Source: a virus (taxonomy: Duplodnaviria; Heunggongvirae; Uroviricota; Caudoviricetes). Taken from it: 11,771 bases of DNA. The notes below the pieces were generated by a model that did not search any database, had not been told where the DNA came from, and was given only the letters and a program-made list of their open reading frames with translations. The stretch is from the IMG/VR virus record IMGVR_UViG_2526164631_000020; one strand, 5' to 3'. Below are positions 578-11,665 of this stretch, piece after piece. The position numbers were made by a program, and so were the translations under genes. Each line of letters starts with the position of its first letter. Position 1 is the first letter of the stretch.

Positions 578-1017
578 ATTTTGCCCTCAGACTGGCGCGA
601 GAGATGGGGAGGCCTGACTGGCGCGCCATGCTTGCCGGGATGACATCCACCGAATATGCCGACTGGCGACATTTTTACCGCACGCATTATTTTCACGATA
701 CCCAACTGGATATGCATTTTTCCGGGCTGACGTACGCCGTACTCAGCCTGTTTTTTTGCGATCCGGATATGCATCCCTCTGATTTCAGTCTGCTTGTCCC
801 CCGGCATGAGGAAGAGCAGGTGGAGAGGCTGGATGAGGACAAAATGCTGATGCAGAAAGCGGCAGGACTTGCCGGAGGCGTCCGGTTCGGTGGGGACGGA
901 GGGGGCGATATTTTATCGTCTGCGGATGTGGCGGATGTCATGGTGGATGATGCCGCATTAATGAGGGCTTCAGCGGGGATTCCAGGAGGTGTGAGATATA
1001 TCCCAGCCGGTTGGTGA
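146..1017 (+). CDS. T: Tail assembly chaperone fusion gpG-T, made by programmed -1 ribosomal frameshift (G frame 146-559, then T frame 559-1017)
   Basis: Heptamer G_GGA_AAG at 553-559 lies in the G frame near its end. The -1 frame is open from there to TGA at 1015-1017, and the ORF track shows the T-domain frame (604..1017) with no plausible independent start or SD. This is the conserved G/G-T arrangement of lambda-like phages. Confidence 0.8.
553..559 (+). promoter_or_regulatory. -1 programmed ribosomal frameshift slippery site (GGGAAAG)
   Basis: The sequence gcGGGAAAGtc reads A-G-K in the G frame (codons 551-559). A one-base slip back re-pairs the tRNAs on GGG AAA and continues in the T frame. 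Confidence 0.8.
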
Positions 1018-1063
1018 TCTTATTATTGACCTGAGTCTGGATGCGGTCCGTTTCGATGAGCAG

Positions 1064-2353
1064 ATGAGCCGGGTAAGGCGTCATTTTTCCGGACTGGAGA
1101 CTGACGCCAGAAAAACCGCCGGTGTCGTTGAGCAGAACCTGAGTCGTCAGGCGCTGGCTGCACAAAAAGCCGGGATTTCCGTCGGGCAGTATAAAGCGGC
1201 CATGCGAACCCTGCCCGCACAGTTTACGGATATCGCCACGCAGCTTGCCGGTGGTCAGAATCCCTGGCTGATCCTGCTGCAACAGGGCGGTCAGGTGAAG
1301 GACTCCTTCGGCGGGATGATCCCCATGCTCAGGGGGCTTGCCGGTGCGATCACCCTGCCGATGGTCGGGGTCACCTCGCTGGCGGTGGCGACAGGTGCGC
1401 TGGCGTACGCCTGGTACCAGGGGGATTCCACGCTTTCAGCGTTTAATAAAACCCTGGTTCTTTCCGGTAATCAGTCCGGACTGACTGCCGATCGTATGCT
1501 GACTCTCTCAAGAGCCGGGCAGGCAGCAGGGCTGACGTTTAACCAGGCGAGAGAGTCACTGGCAGCCCTGGTGAATGCCGGTGTGCGTGGTGGTGAACAG
1601 TTTGATGCCATCAACCAGAGTGTCGCGCGTTTTGCGTCTGCATCCGGTGTGGAGGTGGATAAAGTCGCTGAAGCCTTCGGGAAGCTGACCACTGACCCGA
1701 CGTCGGGACTGATGGCGATGGCGCGCCCGTTCCGTAACGTGACGGCAGAGCAGATTGCGTATGTTGCGCAGCTGCAGCGTTCCGGTGATGAGGCCGGGGC
1801 CTTACAGGCGGCGAACGAGGCCGCAACGAAAGGGTTTGATGACCAGACCCGCCGCCTGAAAGAGAACATGGGCACGCTGGAGACCTGGGCAGACAGGACT
1901 GCACGGGCATTCAAATCCATGTGGGATGCGGAGCTGGATATTGGTCGTCCTGATACCGCGCAGGAGATGCTGATTAAGGCAGAGGCTGCGTTTAAGAAAG
2001 CAGACGACATCTGGAATCTGCGCAAGGATGATTATTTTGTTAACGATGAAGCGCGGGCGCGTTACTGGGATGATCGTGAAAAGGCCCGTCTTGCGCTTGA
2101 AGCCGCCCGAAAGAAGGCTGAGCAGCAGACTCAACAGGACAAAAATGCGCAGCAGCAGAGCGATACCGAAGCGTCACGGCTGAAATATACCGAAGAGGCG
2201 CAGAAGGCTTACGAACGGCTGCAGACGCCGCTGGAGAAATATACCGCCCGTCAGGAAGAACTGAACAAGGCACTGAAAGACGGGAAAATCCTAGCAGGCG
2301 GATTACAACACGCTGATGGCGGCGGACGAAAAAGGATTATGAAGCGACGCTGA
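1064..2353 (+). CDS. H: Tail length tape measure protein H, N-terminal segment (the frame is open from 995 but has no ATG/GTG/TTG before 1064; the ORF is cut short by frame disruption near 2292-2330)
   Basis: 429-aa ORF, Ala/Gln/Glu-rich and coiled-coil-like (…RRHFSGLETDARKTAGVVEQ… …KAEQQTQQDKNAQQQSDTEASRLKYTEEAQKAYERLQ…), matching the lambda gpH N-terminal half as recalled. Located between T and M. Ends at TGA 2351-2353 after an aberrant tail (…KILAGGLQHADGGGRKRIMKRR*). Confidence 0.8.
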   Translation: MSRVRRHFSGLETDARKTAGVVEQNLSRQALAAQKAGISVGQYKAAMRTLPAQFTDIATQLAGGQNPWLILLQQGGQVKDSFGGMIPMLRGLAGAITLPMVGVTSLAVATGALAYAWYQGDSTLSAFNKTLVLSGNQSGLTADRMLTLSRAGQAAGLTFNQARESLAALVNAGVRGGEQFDAINQSVARFASASGVEVDKVAEAFGKLTTDPTSGLMAMARPFRNVTAEQIAYVAQLQRSGDEAGALQAANEAATKGFDDQTRRLKENMGTLETWADRTARAFKSMWDAELDIGRPDTAQEMLIKAEAAFKKADDIWNLRKDDYFVNDEARARYWDDREKARLALEAARKKAEQQTQQDKNAQQQSDTEASRLKYTEEAQKAYERLQTPLEKYTARQEELNKALKDGKILAGGLQHADGGGRKRIMKRR

Positions 2354-2373
2354 AAAAGCCGAAACAGTCCGGC

Positions 2374-3561
2374 GTGAAGGTGTCTGCGGGCGATCGTCAG
2401 GAAGACAGTGCTCATGCTGCCCTGCTGACGCTTCAGGCTGAACTCCGGACGCTGGAGAAGCATGCCGGAGCAAATGAGAAAATCAGCCAGCAGCGCCGGG
2501 ATTTGTGGAAGGCGGAGAGTCAGTTCGCGGTACTGGAGGAGGCGGCACAACGTCGCCAGCTGTCCGCACAGGAGAAATCCCTGCTGGCGCATAAAGATGA
2601 GACGCTGGAGTACAAACGCCAGCTGGCTGCACTTGGCGATAAGGTCACGTATCAGGAGCGTCTGAATGCGCTGGCGCAGCAGGCGGATAAATTCGCACAG
2701 CAGCAACGGGCAAAACGGGCCGCCATTGATGCGAAAAGCCGGGGGCTGACTGACCGGCAGGCAGAACGGGAAGCCACAGAACAGCGCCTGAAGGAACAGT
2801 ATGGCGATAATCCGCTGGCGCTGAATAACGTCATGTCAGAGCAGAAAAAGACCTGGGCGGCTGAAGACCAGCTTCGCGGGAACTGGATGGCAGGCCTGAA
2901 GTCCGGCTGGAGTGAGTGGGAAGAGAGCGCCACGGACAGTATGTCGCAGGTAAAAAGTGCAGCCACGCAGACCTTTGATGGTATTGCACAGAATATGGCG
3001 GCGATGCTGACCGGCAGTGAGCAGAACTGGCGCAGCTTCACCCGTTCCGTGCTGTCCATGATGACAGAAATTCTGCTTAAGCAGGCAATGGTGGGGATTG
3101 TCGGGAGTATCGGCAGCGCCATTGGCGGGGCTGTTGGTGGCGGCGCATCCGCGTCAGGCGGTACAGCCATTCAGGCCGCTGCGGCGAAATTCCATTTTGC
3201 AACCGGAGGGTTTACGGGAACCGGCGGCAAATATGAGCCAGCGGGGATTGTTCACCGTGGTGAGTTTGTCTTCACGAAGGAGGCAACCAGCCGGATTGGC
3301 GTGGGGAATCTTTACCGGCTGATGCGCGGCTATGCCACCGGCGGTTATGTCGGTACACCGGGCAGCATGGCAGACAGCCGGTCGCAGGCGTCCGGGACGT
3401 TTGAGCAGAATAACCATGTGGTGATTAACAACGACGGCACGAACGGGCAGATAGGGCCACAGGCGCTGAAGGCTGTTTATGACGTAGCCCGTAAGGCGGC
3501 AATGGATGTTGTGACCGGGCAGATGCGCGATGGTGGTCTGTTCTCCGGAGGTGGACGATGA
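2374..3561 (+). CDS. H: Tail length tape measure protein H, C-terminal segment (different frame from the N-terminal segment; frame open from 2317)
   Basis: 395-aa ORF (…QAELRTLEKHAGANEKISQQRRDLWKAESQ… …GGFTGTGGKYEPAGIVHRGEFVFTKEATSRIGVGNLYRLMRGYATGGYVG…) matching the lambda gpH C-terminal half as recalled. Its stop TGA 3559-3561 overlaps the M start ATG 3558 (ATGA), as at the lambda H/M junction. Confidence 0.8.
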   Translation: MKVSAGDRQEDSAHAALLTLQAELRTLEKHAGANEKISQQRRDLWKAESQFAVLEEAAQRRQLSAQEKSLLAHKDETLEYKRQLAALGDKVTYQERLNALAQQADKFAQQQRAKRAAIDAKSRGLTDRQAEREATEQRLKEQYGDNPLALNNVMSEQKKTWAAEDQLRGNWMAGLKSGWSEWEESATDSMSQVKSAATQTFDGIAQNMAAMLTGSEQNWRSFTRSVLSMMTEILLKQAMVGIVGSIGSAIGGAVGGGASASGGTAIQAAAAKFHFATGGFTGTGGKYEPAGIVHRGEFVFTKEATSRIGVGNLYRLMRGYATGGYVGTPGSMADSRSQASGTFEQNNHVVINNDGTNGQIGPQALKAVYDVARKAAMDVVTGQMRDGGLFSGGGR

Positions 3562-5933: not shown

Positions 5934-8900
5934 ATGGGCAAAGGAAGCAGTAAGGGGCATACCCCGCGCGAAGCGAAGGACAACCTGAAGTCCACGCAAC
6001 TGCTGAGTGTGATTGATGCCATCAGCGAAGGGCCGATTGACGGTCCGGTGGATGGATTAAAAAGCGTGCTGCTGAACAGTACGCCGGTGCTGGACAGTGA
6101 GGGGAATACCAATATCTCCGGTGTCACGGTGGTGTTCCGGGCTGGTGAGCAGGAGCAGACTCCGCCGGAGGGATTTGAATCCTCCGGCTCCGAGACGGTG
6201 CTGGGTACGGAAGTGAAATACGACACGCCGATCACCCGCACCATCACGTCGGCAAACATCGATCGTCTGCGTTTTACCTTCGGTGTGCAGGCACTGGTGG
6301 AAACCACCTCAAAGGGGGACAGGAATCCGTCGGAAGTCCGCCTGCTGGTTCAGATACAACGTAACGGTGGCTGGGTGACGGAAAAAGACATCACCATTAA
6401 AGGCAAAACCACCTCACAGTATCTGGCATCGGTGGTGGTGGGTAACCTGCCGCCGCGCCCGTTCAATATCCGGATGCGCAGGATGACGCCGGACAGCACC
6501 ACAGACCAGCTGCAGAACAAAACGCTCTGGTCGTCATACACCGAAATCATCGATGTGAAACAGTGCTACCCGAACACGGCACTGGTCGGCGTACAGGTGG
6601 ATTCGGAGCAGTTCGGCAGCCAGCAGGTGAGCCGTAATTATCATCTTCGCGGGCGCATTCTGCAGGTGCCGTCGAACTATAACCCGCAGACGCGACAATA
6701 CAGCGGTATCTGGGACGGAACGTTAAAACCGGCATACAGCAACAACATGGCCTGGTGTCTGTGGGATATGCTTACCCATCCGCGCTACGGCATGGGGAAA
6801 CGTCTTGGTGCGGCGGATGTGGATAAATGGGCGCTGTATGTCATCGGCCAGTACTGCGACCAGGCAGTGCCGGACGGCTTTGGCGGCACGGAGCCGCGCA
6901 TCACCTGTAATGCGTACCTGACCACACAGCGCAAGGCGTGGGATGTGCTCAGTGATTTCTGCTCGGCGATGCGCTGTATGCCGGTATGGAACGGGCAGAC
7001 GCTGACGTTCGTGCAGGACCGACCGTCGGATAAGGTGTGGACCTATAACCGCAGTAATGTGGTGATGCCGGATGATGGCGCGCCGTTCCGCTACAGCTTT
7101 AGCGCCCTGAAAGACCGCCATAATGCCGTTGAGGTGAACTGGATTGACCCGAACAACGGCTGGGAGACGGCGACAGAGCTTGTGGAGGATACGCAGGCCA
7201 TTGCCCGTTACGGTCGTAACGTCACGAAGATGGATGCCTTTGGCTGTACCAGCCGGGGGCAGGCACACCGCGCCGGGCTGTGGCTGATTAAAACAGAACT
7301 GCTGGAAACGCAGACCGTGGACTTCTGCGTGGGCGCAGAAGGGCTTCGCCATGTGCCGGGCGATGTCATTGAAATCTGTGATGATGACTATGCCGGTATC
7401 AGCACCGGTGGTCGTGTGCTGGCGGTGAACAGCCAGACCCGGACGCTGACGCTCGACCGTGAAATCACGCTGCCATCCTCCGGTACCACGCTGATAAGCC
7501 TGGTTGACGGAAGTGGCAATCCGGTCAGCGTGGAGGTTCAGTCCGTCACCGACGGCGTGAAGGTAAAAGTGAGCCGTGTTCCTGACGGTGTTGCTGAATA
7601 CAGCGTATGGGGGCTGAAGCTGCCGACGTTGCGCCAGCGCCTGTTCCGCTGCGTGAGTGTCCGTGAGAACGACGACGGCACGTACGCTGTCACAGCCGTG
7701 CAGCATGTCCCGGAAAAAGAGGCCATCGTGGATAACGGGGCGCACTTTGACGGCGACCAGAGCGGCACGGTGAATGGTGTCACGCCGCCAGCGGTGCAGC
7801 ACCTGACTGCCGAAGTCACCGCAGACAGCGGGGAGTATCAGGTGCTGGCGCGATGGGACACACCGAAGGTGGTGAAGGGCGTGAGCTTCCTGCTCCGTCT
7901 GACCGTAACAGCGGACGACGGCAGTGAGCGGCTGGTCAGCACGGCCCGGACGACGGAAACCACATACCGCTTCACGCAACTGGCGCTGGGGCGTTACACG
8001 CTGACAGTCCGGGCGGTAAATGCGTGGGGGCAGCAGGGCGATCCGGCATCGGTATCGTTCCGGATTGCGGCACCGGCAGCGCCTGTCACTATTGAACTGA
8101 TACCAGGGTATTTTCAGATAACAGCGGTCCCGAAACTGGCTGTATATGACCCGACGGTGCAGTTTGAGTTCTGGTTCTCGGAAAAGCGGATTATCGATAT
8201 CAGGCAGGTTGAAACCAGCGCGCGTTATCTTGGTACGGCGCTGTACTGGATAGCCGCCAGTAGCAATATTAAGCCGGGTTATGATTATTACTTTTATATC
8301 CGCAGCGTGAACACCGTAGGTAAATCGGCATTTGTGGAGGCCGTCGGTCGGGCGAGCGATGATGCGGAAGGTTATCTGAATTTTTATAAAGGGTTGATCA
8401 ATAAAACGCATCTCGGCAAGGAACTGCTGGAAAACTTTGAGCTGACGGAGGATAACGCCAGCAAACTGGAGGAGTTTTCGAAAGAGTGGAAGGACGCTAA
8501 CGATAAATGGAATGCCATGTGGGGCGTCAAAATTGAGCAGACCAAAGACGGCAAACATTATGTCGCGGGTATTGGCCTCAGCATGGAGGACGCGGAGGAA
8601 GGCAAGCTGAGCCAGTTTCTGGTTGCCGCTAACCGTATCGCGTTTATTGACCCGGCAAACGGGAATGAAACGCCGATGTTTGTGGCGCAGGGCAACCAGA
8701 TATTCATGAATGACGTGTTCCTGAAACGCCTGACGGCCCCCACTATTACCAGCGGTGGCAATCCACCGGCATTTTCCCTGACACCGGACGGAAAGCTGAC
8801 TGCTAAAAATGCGGATATCAGTGGCAGTGTGAATGCGAACGCCGGGACGCTCAACAATGTCACGGTAAATGAAAACTGTACGATTAAGGGCATGCTGGAG

Positions 8901-9347
8901 GCGACCCAAGTCAGAGGGGATTTCGTTAAAGCTGTATCCAAATCATTTCCGAAACAGGCTGGTACGTGGGGTAACACGGAAACACCAAACGGGACGGTTA
9001 CAGTCACCATCAGCGATGATCATAACTTTGACCGTCAAATCATTATTCCGCCCATTATCTTTAACGGAATAGCGTATAGCTATCCGGGAAGTGGTAATAA
9101 CCCGGGAGGTACAAGTTACACGGGTTATGGTTTTGAAGTTCGCAAAAACGGTGTATTAATCGCATCCAGAGAAACTAAAGGGGCCATTCCCGGTAGCTAC
9201 AGTGCGGTTATTGATATGCCGAGTGGCAGGGGAAGCGTCACTCTGGAGTTTAAGGTTTTCCATAAAGGCAATCAGTGGGCAGGTAATATCACCGACTGTA
9301 CGGTGATTGTGACCAAAAAAGCCGCTTCCGGCATCAGTATTCGTTGA
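5934..9347 (+). CDS. J: Central tail fibre / host specificity protein gpJ
   Basis: 1137-aa ORF (lambda J is 1132 aa as recalled) with SD GGAG at 5922-5925. The N-terminal ~1000 aa look lambda J-like ([35 protein letters not shown]…). The C-terminal ~150 aa are the expected receptor-binding region. Confidence 0.9.
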
Positions 9348-9365
9348 AATTGTTATAACCCATAT

Positions 9366-9393
9366 AAGGGCACCAGAAATGGTGCCTTTTTTA
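9366..9393 (+). terminator. Rho-independent terminator downstream of J
   Basis: GC-rich hairpin GGCACC (9369-9374), loop AGAAAT, GGTGCC (9381-9386), followed directly by TTTTTT (9387-9392). Lies 19 nt after the J stop. Confidence 0.65.
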
Positions 9394-9416
9394 TTGCAGA
9401 AAAGCGAGAGGTAATT

Positions 9417-10016
9417 ATGCGTAAAGTTTGTGCAGCCATTTTGTCCGCAGCCATCTGTCTGTCCGTATCCGGTGCGTCTGCATGGGCGTCTGAACATCAG
9501 TCCACACTGAGCGCGGGGTATCTTCATGCCCGGACGAACGCTCCCGGTAGCGATAATCTTAACGGGATTAACGTGAAATACCGTTATGAATTTACGGACA
9601 CGCTGGGGCTGGTGACGTCATTCAGCTATGCAGGAGACAAGAATCGCCAGCTTACCCGTTACAGCGATACCCGCTGGCATGAAGATTCCGTGCGTAACCG
9701 CTGGTTCAGCGTAATGGCGGGGCCGTCTGTGCGCGTGAATGAATGGTTCAGCGCGTATGCGATGGCGGGTGTGGCTTACAGCCGTGTGTCGACTTTCTCC
9801 GGGGATTATCTTCGCGTAACTGACAACAAGGGGAAAACGCACGATGTGCTGACCGGAAGTGATGACGGTCGCCACAGCGACACCTCTCTGGCGTGGGGAG
9901 CTGGCGTGCAGTTTAACCCGACCGAATCCGTGGCCATTGATATTGCTTATGAAGGTTCCGGCAGTGGTGACTGGCGCACTGACGGTTTCATCGTGGGTGT
10001 CGGTTATAAATTCTGA
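9417..10016 (+). CDS. lom: Lom-like outer membrane beta-barrel protein (Ail/Lom/PagC/OmpX family), lysogenic-conversion moron
   Basis: 199-aa ORF with SD GAGAGG at 9405-9410. N-terminal signal peptide ([24 protein letters not shown]). C-terminus …[24 protein letters not shown] is identical in character to the lambda Lom C-terminal beta-strand with terminal Phe; the N-terminal two-thirds are more divergent. Confidence 0.85.
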
Positions 10017-10042
10017 TTAGCCAGGTAACACAGTGTTATGAC

Positions 10043-10070
10043 AGCCCGCCGGTTCAGGCGGGCTTTTTTG
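10043..10070 (+). terminator. Rho-independent terminator downstream of lom
   Basis: Perfect 8-bp stem AGCCCGCC (10043-10050) / GGCGGGCT (10057-10064), loop GGTTCA, followed by a T6 run (10064-10069). Lies 27 nt after the lom stop. Confidence 0.75.
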
Positions 10071-10080
10071 TGGGGTGAAT

Positions 10081-11394
10081 ATGGCAGTAAAGATTTCAGG
10101 TGTACTGAAAGACGGCACAGGAAAACCGGTACAAAACTGCACCATTCAGCTAAAGGCCAGACGCAACAGCACCACGGTGGTGGTGAACACGGTGGCCTCA
10201 GAAAATCCGGATGAAGCCGGGCGTTACAGCATGGACGTTGAGTACGGACAGTACAGCGTCAGTCTGTTGGTGGAGGGATTTCCGCCGTCACACGCCGGGA
10301 TTATCACCGTGTATGAGGACTCAAAGCCGGGCACACTGAATGATTTCCTCGGTGCAATGACGGAGGATGATGTCCGGCCGGAGGCACTGCGCCGTTTTGA
10401 ACTGATGGTGGAAGAGGTGGCGCGTCACGCTGAGGAGGCGAAGAAGAATGCCGGAGAGGCGGAGACGTCAGCGAGGAATGCCGGCATATCAGCCAGTCAG
10501 GCAGAAGAGAGCGCTGCAAATGCTGACACTTCAGCAGGGGAGGCATCGGAGTCAGCCCGGCAGGCGGCAGAAAGTGCAGCCTCAGCAAAGCAGTCAGAGG
10601 ATGCGTCCTCGTCCTCGGCTTCTGCGGCCGCTCAAAAAGCCAGTGAGTCATCACAAAGTGCAGCAGAAGCTGAATTGTCAAGAAAGACGGCAGAAAGTGC
10701 AGCCGGTAATGCAGCCAGGGATGCAATGACCGCAACAGAAAAAGCCCGGGAGTCAGCAGAAAGCGCACAGTCAGCGGAACAAAGCAGGATAGCGGCGGAA
10801 GACGCCGTAAACCGAATCCCCACCGTGGTGGGACCTCCCGGGCCAAAGGGAGAACCGGGGCCCGCGGGTCCTCAGGGGCCGAAGGGAGATAAAGGAGAGC
10901 GTGGCGACACCGGTCCTGTCGGGGCAACCGGTGAGCGGGGACCGGCAGGTGATGCTGGTCCGGCAGGCCCGCAGGGGCCGAAAGGCGACAGGGGAGAGCG
11001 GGGAGAGACCGGTCTGACGGGAAATGCAGGTCCACAGGGTCCAAAGGGAGATACCGGTGCGGCAGGCCCGGCTGGCCCACAGGGACCGAAAGGAGAAACA
11101 GGTGCGGCTGGCCCGGTGGGGGCAACCGGACCTCAGGGACCGAAGGGCGACCCGGGGGAGACACAAATCCGTTTTCGTCTGGGGCCGGGAAACATTATTG
11201 AGACAAACAGCCATGGCTGGTTCCCGGATACAGATGGCGCACTCATCACCGGACTGACCTTTCTTGACCCCAAAGATGCCACACAGGTTCAGGGTTTTTT
11301 TCAGCATTTGCAGGTCAGGTTTGGTGACGGGCCGTGGCAGGATGTTAAGGGGCTGGATGAAGTGGGCAGTGATACAGGCAGAACAGGAGAATGA
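10081..11394 (+). CDS. stf: Side tail fibre protein with lambda Stf-like N-terminal anchor, Ala/Ser/Glu-rich low-complexity segment, collagen-like Gly-X-Y region and a ~76-aa C-terminal tip domain
   Basis: ATG at 10081 (the ORF track starts at GTG 10075). N-terminus [38 protein letters not shown]… matches the lambda Stf N-terminus as recalled. Contains 37 consecutive G-X-Y triplets. Stop TGA at 11392-11394. Confidence 0.85.
10831..11163 (+). repeat. Collagen-like Gly-X-Y triplet repeat region inside stf (37 uninterrupted triplets, with GPQGPKG recurring five times)
   Basis: Translation [111 protein letters not shown]. The nucleotide sequence is GC-rich with imperfect internal repeats. Confidence 0.9.
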
Positions 11395-11395
11395 C

Positions 11396-11665
11396 ATGAA
11401 CGTACTAAAAAAACTTATGCAGCGTCTGTGCGGTTGCGGAAAGCATGATGACCGTGAACACGGGGAGTTACTTACAGCACAACTGCGTCTGGGGCCGGCA
11501 GACATTCTGGAGTCAGATGAGAATGGCATTATCCCGGAGCAGGCCAGGGTAATCACGCAGGTGGTGATACTGGATGCGGATAAAAAGCAGATACAGTGTG
11601 TGGTAAGACCGCTGCAAATCCTGCGTGCTGACGGGACGTGGGAAAATATTGGCGGGATGAAATAG
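11396..11665 (+). CDS. Hypothetical 89-aa protein, paralogue of the stf C-terminal domain
   Basis: ATG at 11396 with SD AGGAGA at 11385-11390, one base after the stf stop; TAG at 11663-11665. The segment LRLGPADILESDENGIIPEQARVITQVVILDADKKQIQCVVRPLQILRADGTWENIGG aligns with stf [60 protein letters not shown]. An identical 13-mer CGTCTGGGGCCGG occurs at 11176-11188 and 11486-11498. Confidence 0.6.
   Translation: MNVLKKLMQRLCGCGKHDDREHGELLTAQLRLGPADILESDENGIIPEQARVITQVVILDADKKQIQCVVRPLQILRADGTWENIGGMK

Follow-up and report, generated by a model that had tools for sequence, protein, structure and literature searches.

Predicted intrinsic terminators flanking lom in a lambdoid late operon: one kept with J, one carried by an optional lom cassette

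In lambdoid phages, polymerase that starts at the late promoter and is modified by Q reads through terminators (lambda Q antitermination). In lambda itself, lom stands between J and stf (orf-401; NC_001416, 18,904-19,649), with a terminator position on either side of it. Lom is described as a moron product (PMC3594210), and lom has been counted among the few genes expressed from the lambda prophage (PMC7067206). A further article, quoting Liu et al. 2013, describes lysogenic expression of lambda lom and a strong rise late in infection (PMC12366544). A microarray study from 2007 left lom undetected in a lambda lysogen and stated that little is known of the lom promoter (PMC2147009). Lom of Phi24B is reported to be expressed equally in lysogens and in induced cells, independently of induction (PMC3342100).

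We analysed a stretch of 11,771 nt (the window), which carries the tail half of the late operon of a lambdoid phage, with all genes on the + strand. G (146-577) and the tail assembly gene T (604-1017) are followed by the tape-measure gene (about 1000-3561), and M, L, K and I lie between the latter and J. The J gene (5934-9347) encodes a tail tip/host-specificity protein of 1137 residues. The protein matches six Pfam domains specific to J, the receptor-binding domain of the C-terminus among them, and an E. coli genome with 100% identity across positions 9300-10120 annotates it as gpJ. A spacer of 69 nt (9348-9416) separates J from lom (9417-10016), which encodes a 199-residue protein of the Ail/Lom family, a predicted eight-stranded outer-membrane beta-barrel. 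A Shine-Dalgarno sequence, GAGAGG, can be read at 9406-9411, 5 nt before the lom ATG, and the phage 434 record annotates a ribosome-binding site just 5' of the lom start. The next gene, stf (10081-11394), encodes a side tail fibre with phage_tail_N, collagen repeat and Phage_fiber_C matches in Pfam; an SD-like GGGGTGA stands at 10072-10078, and the start of the gene agrees with the annotation in a related E. coli genome, in 434 and in lambda. The initial annotation had placed lom between the tail-tip and tail-fibre genes, and indeed a full-length Ail/Lom reading frame is flanked by J and stf. J-lom-stf is here the standard segment of the late operon of lambda/434-type prophages.

Two further features of the window lie outside this segment. 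The tape-measure gene is broken into two reading frames (1064-2353 and 2374-3561), with two extra A residues 33 nt apart (2293 and 2326) relative to a close relative that has an intact coding sequence of 2,562 nt and is 99.3% identical to the window across its length. The split points either to a defective prophage or to a homopolymer sequencing error. At the other end, a second reading frame with a Phage_fiber_C match (11264-11665, +) overlaps the end of stf in another frame. A related E. coli genome has at this place a 270-nt gene annotated as 'tail fiber C-terminal domain', followed by IS2 and T3SS effector genes (espW). In the closest genome (E. coli FDAARGOS_1059, 12562-16975), IS2 comes after the tail-fibre end of the prophage, together with DUF1076 genes, espW and a chaperone-like gene regulated by bfpT; this region is a typical EPEC/EHEC effector-exchange locus adjoining potAB.

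The segment 9300-10120 (821 nt) is widespread. Of 5,426 complete E. coli genomes, 4,734 have a match, with 15,571 matching places in total (median 2 per genome, maximum 14) and 100% identity in two genomes; 223 phage records match as well. Phages 434 (OL657226; 96.5%), Ayreon (MF807953) and cdtI (99%) are 96-99% identical to the window over this segment and differ from it by point changes only. The GenBank records of 434 and Ayreon already annotate terminators after J and after lom, at homologous positions. A terminator-flanked lom is therefore an ordinary arrangement that is already known and annotated in public records.

Downstream of J, 18 nt past its stop codon (9345-9347), begins a hairpin, AAGGGCACCA-GAAA-TGGTGCCTTT (9366-9389), in which positions 9366-9375 and 9380-9389 form 10 pairs that include a single G-U and have a G+C-rich core of 7 bp. 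The stem runs into six T (9387-9392), extended as TTTTTTATT to 9395. The RNA fold reaches -15.6 kcal/mol (z-score -3.4), and none of 200 shuffles was as stable. We refer to this predicted intrinsic terminator of the J module as tJ (9366-9395, +). Variation of the hairpins was followed in 80 IMG/VR loci whose Lom is 95-100% identical to that of the window, which yielded 18 distinct upstream and 13 distinct downstream sequences. Among relatives the arms of tJ read GGGCACCA/TGGTGCC, GGGCGCCA/TGGCGCC or GGGCGTCA/TGACGCC, and in Stx1_14040 GGGCACCT/AGGTGCC. When 12 distinct alleles are aligned, three pairs of the stem show substitutions in both partners (GC/AU, CG/UA and AU/UA); 90.8% of the alignment cells are paired, against at most 62% with slid partners, and no shuffle out of 500 reached the pairing or the covariation score. 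As the alleles are few and connected by recombination, this covariation is supportive, not conclusive, for a selected structure. Two singleton alleles have mismatched hybrid stems (L014, -7.2 kcal/mol; L060, -10.6 kcal/mol). One IMG/VR locus (L050) has the same arms but the loop TTTC in place of GAAA, which looks like an inversion of the loop. At the position of tJ, lambda has an unrelated stem, CGTCCG-GGAA-CGGGCG, followed by TTTTATTAT, and hairpins of another sequence, each with a T-run, are found at corresponding positions in lambda, Stx1_14040 and 933W. What is conserved in tJ thus appears to be the structure rather than the sequence.

The second hairpin, AGCCCGCC-GGTTCA-GGCGGGCT (10043-10064), starts 26 nt past the lom stop codon (10014-10016). 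It is a perfect 8-bp stem (10043-10050/10057-10064) with seven G-C pairs, followed by a T6 run at 10064-10069, and its RNA fold (-18.2 kcal/mol, z-score -4.0) was likewise not equalled by any of 200 shuffles. Across the 80 IMG/VR loci the stem of this predicted intrinsic terminator, tlom (10043-10069, +), is nearly invariant, and the rare changes go to G-U, so that pairing is kept. Lambda has nearly the same sequence, with one G-C pair turned into G-U, and 933W and phage 86 show an unrelated hairpin plus T6 about 23 nt past the lom stop. Between the lom stop codon and tlom lies a perfect 13-nt palindrome, TAACACAGTGTTA (10026-10038), which folds as a small second hairpin and is identical in lambda, in 434 and in 78 of the 80 loci examined; we estimate that 11.8 kb would contain about three palindromes of this kind by chance, so that alone it is not significant.

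The hairpin plus T6 that the initial annotation had seen after J and after lom are thus present, at 9366-9392 and 10043-10069, and both are stable and conserved. Each is a G+C-rich stem-loop followed by a U run, on the same strand as the gene and 3' of its stop codon. The structure is kept through compensatory changes in tJ, through changes to G-U only in tlom and through replacement by other hairpins in relatives. Hence tJ and tlom carry every sequence feature of intrinsic terminators, in conserved form, and would be expected to terminate transcription.

The whole window was also scanned for such elements. A permissive terminator scan found 14 sites against 9.9 +/- 3.2 expected, that is, no overall enrichment, with tJ and tlom as its top-scoring sites. 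A strict scan, which required one hairpin folding at -12 kcal/mol or below, directly next to a run of five or more T, returned three sites, all on the + strand, against 0.15 +/- 0.36 in 60 dinucleotide shuffles (maximum 1). The third of these sites lies within the coding sequence of T (723-757, +), where CGGGCTGACGTACGCCGTACTCAGCCTG is followed by T7 (-15.4 kcal/mol); the T gene of lambda has a homologous hairpin followed by T5. Across the whole window, Rfam yielded three matches at E <= 1, all at chance level and none near lom. A repeat search over 9300-10130 listed the tJ hairpin, together with short repeat pairs judged to be chance, and did not list the tlom stem.

We then looked at loci in which J and stf are adjacent, searching with a chimeric query in which the final 300 nt of J were joined to the initial 300 nt of stf. 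In phage ev207 the two halves of the query lie about 54 nt apart, with no lom; the J stop codon is followed by a compensated variant of tJ, GGGCGCCAGAAATGGCGCC, then by TTTTTTATT, then directly by the stf leader TGTGGAGTGAGTATG. By an exact-pattern scan, the same lom-less tJ-stf junction occurs in 86 IMG/VR contigs, which show 20 variants of the sequence and three or more distinct 3' ends of J. The lom-containing junction has at least 120 IMG/VR matches. In one lom-less locus (L171) the J end and the hairpin are identical to those of the window. The J-stf junction of HK97 was considered as a guide to the breakpoints at the DNA level and set aside, since its DNA does not align with that of the window; the comparison relied on ev207 and the IMG/VR loci. 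Four lom-less loci, which differ in the 3' end of J, align to the window as far as 9395 and again from 10064. The breakpoints of lom fall in both T-tracts, with an overlap, or microhomology, of about 5 nt. Because the alignments break at 9395 and 10064, the optional cassette is delimited by sequence comparison to about 9396-10068 (+), which is missing in lom-less relatives and comprises the Shine-Dalgarno sequence, lom, the 13-nt palindrome and tlom, while tJ stays with J.

The initial annotation had taken the hairpin after J as the upstream bracket of a lom unit. This does not stand, since tJ persists in ev207 and in the 86 lom-less IMG/VR contigs. Lom-less relatives keep tJ with the same stem variants and have the stf leader directly after it; judged from these alignments, tJ is therefore the J module's own predicted terminator and not part of the lom unit. 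Because tJ is present also where lom is absent, its selective role may differ from the insulation of lom and may concern, for example, the ratio of J to stf expression or the stability of the J mRNA 3' end.

The slot between J and stf is a known collecting point for accessory genes: HK97 lacks lom and has stf next after J, and HK022 and N15 carry cor and other small genes there, with a hairpin and TTTTTTATTG before the next gene. The base composition of lom differs only slightly from its surroundings (G+C 55.0% against 56.6% for the window; GC3 58.5% against 64-68%). A regional compositional outlier lies in J, whose last 600 nt (8748-9347, the receptor-binding end) have 48% G+C against about 56% for the window. 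The locus had initially been read as classic moron architecture, and this description fits in part. lom is an extra gene between genes that are adjacent in relatives, it has its own downstream terminator (tlom lies inside the indel), and the literature calls Lom a moron product; on the other side, no promoter of its own was found and its composition is not that of foreign DNA.

The cassette contributes only 21 nt of sequence 5' of the lom ATG. No convincing sigma-70 pair had been recognized in the J-lom spacer beforehand, and two scans reproduced this result. A sigma-70 scan of the window gave no promoter-like site near lom. A weight-matrix scan covering 8900-9430 and the spacers of lambda and Stx1_14040 found no conserved usable promoter; atypical, activator-dependent or in-hairpin starts are beyond the reach of such a consensus scan. 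A 6.7-bit site in the spacer cannot serve lom because its -10 hexamer sits on the ATG. The best site able to serve the gene, TTCGTT-17-TATAAG, scores 4.0 bits, and its hexamers are not conserved among alleles. Farther upstream, the best site within J is TTGACC-19-CATTAT (9028-9058), which has a poor spacer and lies about 330 nt before tJ. A start within the tJ hairpin from the -10 hexamer TATAAG (9363-9368), by which transcription would escape termination, was also considered and rejected: the hexamer varies (AATAAA, TATACG, AGAACG) and the -35 is poor. A weak site, TCGTCC-17-TATAAA, which overlaps the terminator tail (5.7 bits), occurs in lambda only. In 933W, the 90-nt spacer before lom is rich in A+T and holds sites that score 10.6 and 9.5 bits, equal to the best of the window, and no terminator stands upstream. 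As to stf, its ATG lies only 11 nt past the U-tract of tlom, so that it has no promoter of its own there. Space for a promoter is lacking before lom as well as before stf, and the late-operon polymerase must therefore cross both terminators. The proposal that lom forms its own transcriptional unit is accordingly not supported, with 21 nt upstream, no usable site above about 4 bits in the spacer and an stf gene that is also without promoter room. In this allele, the origin of a lysogenic lom transcript is not visible in the sequence.

We regard it as probable that J, lom and stf share one antiterminated lytic transcript and that tJ and tlom stop unmodified polymerase in the repressed prophage. 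During lytic growth, Q-modified polymerase from the late promoter would ignore both hairpins, and J, lom and stf would be carried on one long transcript. In the repressed prophage, unmodified polymerase would stop at tJ, which would block stray transcription out of J, and tlom would keep any transcription of lom out of the tail-fibre genes. The main competing model is an autonomous moron, in which a promoter of its own, situated within or close to the 69-nt spacer, drives lom as a monocistronic unit ending at tlom, with tJ as the upstream insulator. Such a unit would fit the lysogenic expression reported for lambda lom (PMC7067206, PMC12366544) as well as the presence of the downstream terminator inside the cassette. 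The weak 5.7-bit site of lambda points in the same direction, as do the 9.5-10.6-bit sites of the 933W/Phi24B-type lom, the expression of which is uncoupled from induction (PMC3342100). We nevertheless consider it unlikely for this locus, where 21 nt of cassette precede the ATG, the best usable spacer site reaches 4.0 bits, the candidate hexamers before the hairpin vary among alleles, tJ occurs without lom and the composition of lom shows no foreign-DNA signature.

The hairpins could also act mainly on RNA: on the antiterminated late transcript they might stop 3' exonucleases or delimit processing, and so govern how stable the J, lom and stf segments are relative to one another and how much of each is made, with termination secondary. 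That tJ is kept between J and stf even without an accessory gene, that both hairpins stand exactly at cistron boundaries with the next Shine-Dalgarno sequence within 11-14 nt, and that tJ is conserved in structure and not in sequence would all suit such a role. Both stems are, however, followed by long unbroken U-tracts, which a terminator needs and a stability element does not, and an effect on RNA is compatible with termination and not exclusive of it; as the main function of the hairpins we judge it rather improbable. Finally, functionless chance inverted repeats or neutral recombination scars would agree with the permissive scan, in which terminators are not enriched over shuffles (14 against 9.9), and with cassette breakpoints that lie within T-tracts. 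This reading is hardly credible in view of the strict scan (three sites against 0.15 expected), of the compensatory changes that keep the tJ stem paired, of the unrelated hairpins with a T-run at the same positions in lambda, Stx1_14040 and 933W, and of the occurrence of these elements in thousands of prophages.

Concerning the protein, Lom matches Pfam PF06316 (Ail_Lom) with 397.8 bits (cutoff 23; E 1e-119), residues 1-199 being aligned to positions 1-199 of the 199-position profile. It is 44% identical to lambda Lom, which is 7 residues longer. Searches against the PDB matched 9wso_C, 'Outer membrane protein lom' (E 1e-49), and entries of OmpX and Ail (E 1e-18 to 1e-20), and an eight-stranded barrel is predicted from these matches to solved lambda Lom (9wso_C), OmpX and Ail. 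The solved lambda Lom is chain C of 9wso, an entry that holds other chains; 9wso is not among the PDB entries matching J homologs, and we found no paper mentioning the code. The signal peptide covers about residues 1-24 (..ASAWA, followed by SEHQ), with cleavage placed by the AxA rule, and the C-terminus (..VGYKF) ends on an aromatic residue, an outer-membrane insertion signal.

The last 27-30 residues of Lom (..G.G.KF) are almost invariant in comparison with the Lom proteins of lambda, Stx1_14040 and 933W, and the rest is 41-47% identical. At the DNA level, identity between the window and lambda jumps to at least 90% in 50-column windows from about 9943, through tlom and into stf, and a mosaic joint therefore lies within the 3' end of lom. 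A mere recombination joint with lambda explains the conserved C-terminus only in part: 933W Lom shares the motif on diverged DNA, with 15 of 27 third codon positions differing. Because the motif is kept in 933W despite this divergence, the conservation of the C-terminus, a feature of the whole family, is attributed to selection at the protein level. Strands and loops were assigned from the HMMER alignment to OmpX together with the published OmpX topology. On this basis, the conserved segment comprises what we take to be strand 7, surface loop 4 and strand 8. The variable, indel-rich segments, with the large indels and most of the substitutions, fall at the expected loops 1-3, and Lom is longer than the OmpX/Ail type where loops 2 and 3 are expected. 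The initial contrast between a conserved barrel C-terminus and divergent surface loops is thus retained for the variable parts, which are mainly predicted surface loops (1-3), and has to be amended for the conserved part, which is not barrel only and also includes predicted loop 4.

These results have little significance beyond correct annotation, as lom is a textbook lysogenic-conversion gene at a locus present in most E. coli genomes. They are modestly useful in assigning tJ to the J module and in delimiting a promoter-less cassette bounded by T-tracts. The question of where lysogenic lom transcription starts in siphovirus-type lambdoid phages gains some interest from a recent article in which adsorption of lambda is reported to be blocked by Lom, with a possible action of the protein late in infection (PMC12366544). 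We tentatively propose, as a possibility that we hold to be somewhat doubtful, that the T-tracts of the terminators serve as recombination joints for a portable, promoter-less cassette made of a Shine-Dalgarno sequence, a gene and a terminator, so that lom would be gained and lost through short homologies. If true, this would explain why the breakpoints are identical (9395/10064) across several J backgrounds, and why the slot holds varied genes (lom, cor), each ending in a hairpin and TTTTTT plus ATTG or GTGG. Its corollary would be that lom in this allele owes its lysogenic expression to transcription that leaks past tJ, or to an unconventional start, and not to a moron promoter.

Set against the known systems, the locus is closest to 434, Ayreon and cdtI. 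With lambda it shares the gene order, the two terminator positions and the Shine-Dalgarno context; lambda differs by its unrelated tJ stem, by a shorter U-tract (T4ATT) and by the weak TATAAA after tJ, which is absent from the window. The short-tailed Stx phages (933W, Phi24B and Stx2 phage 86) share the Ail/Lom family, the C-terminal motif and a hairpin plus T6 after lom, whereas their lom has about 40% identity, another genomic neighbourhood, no upstream terminator and strong promoter-like sites. Ail, OmpX and PagC belong to the same family of eight-stranded barrels (PF06316/PF13505); unlike Lom, they are encoded on chromosomes or plasmids, by genes with a regulation of their own. The morons of HK97 and HK022 (Juhala et al. 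2000, reviewed in PMC3594210; for example HK97 gene 15 and cor of HK022/N15) share with the lom cassette a dispensable extra gene that has its own terminator. The lom cassette departs from them in that no internal promoter was found, its composition is not deviant and the upstream terminator pre-exists in lom-less genomes.
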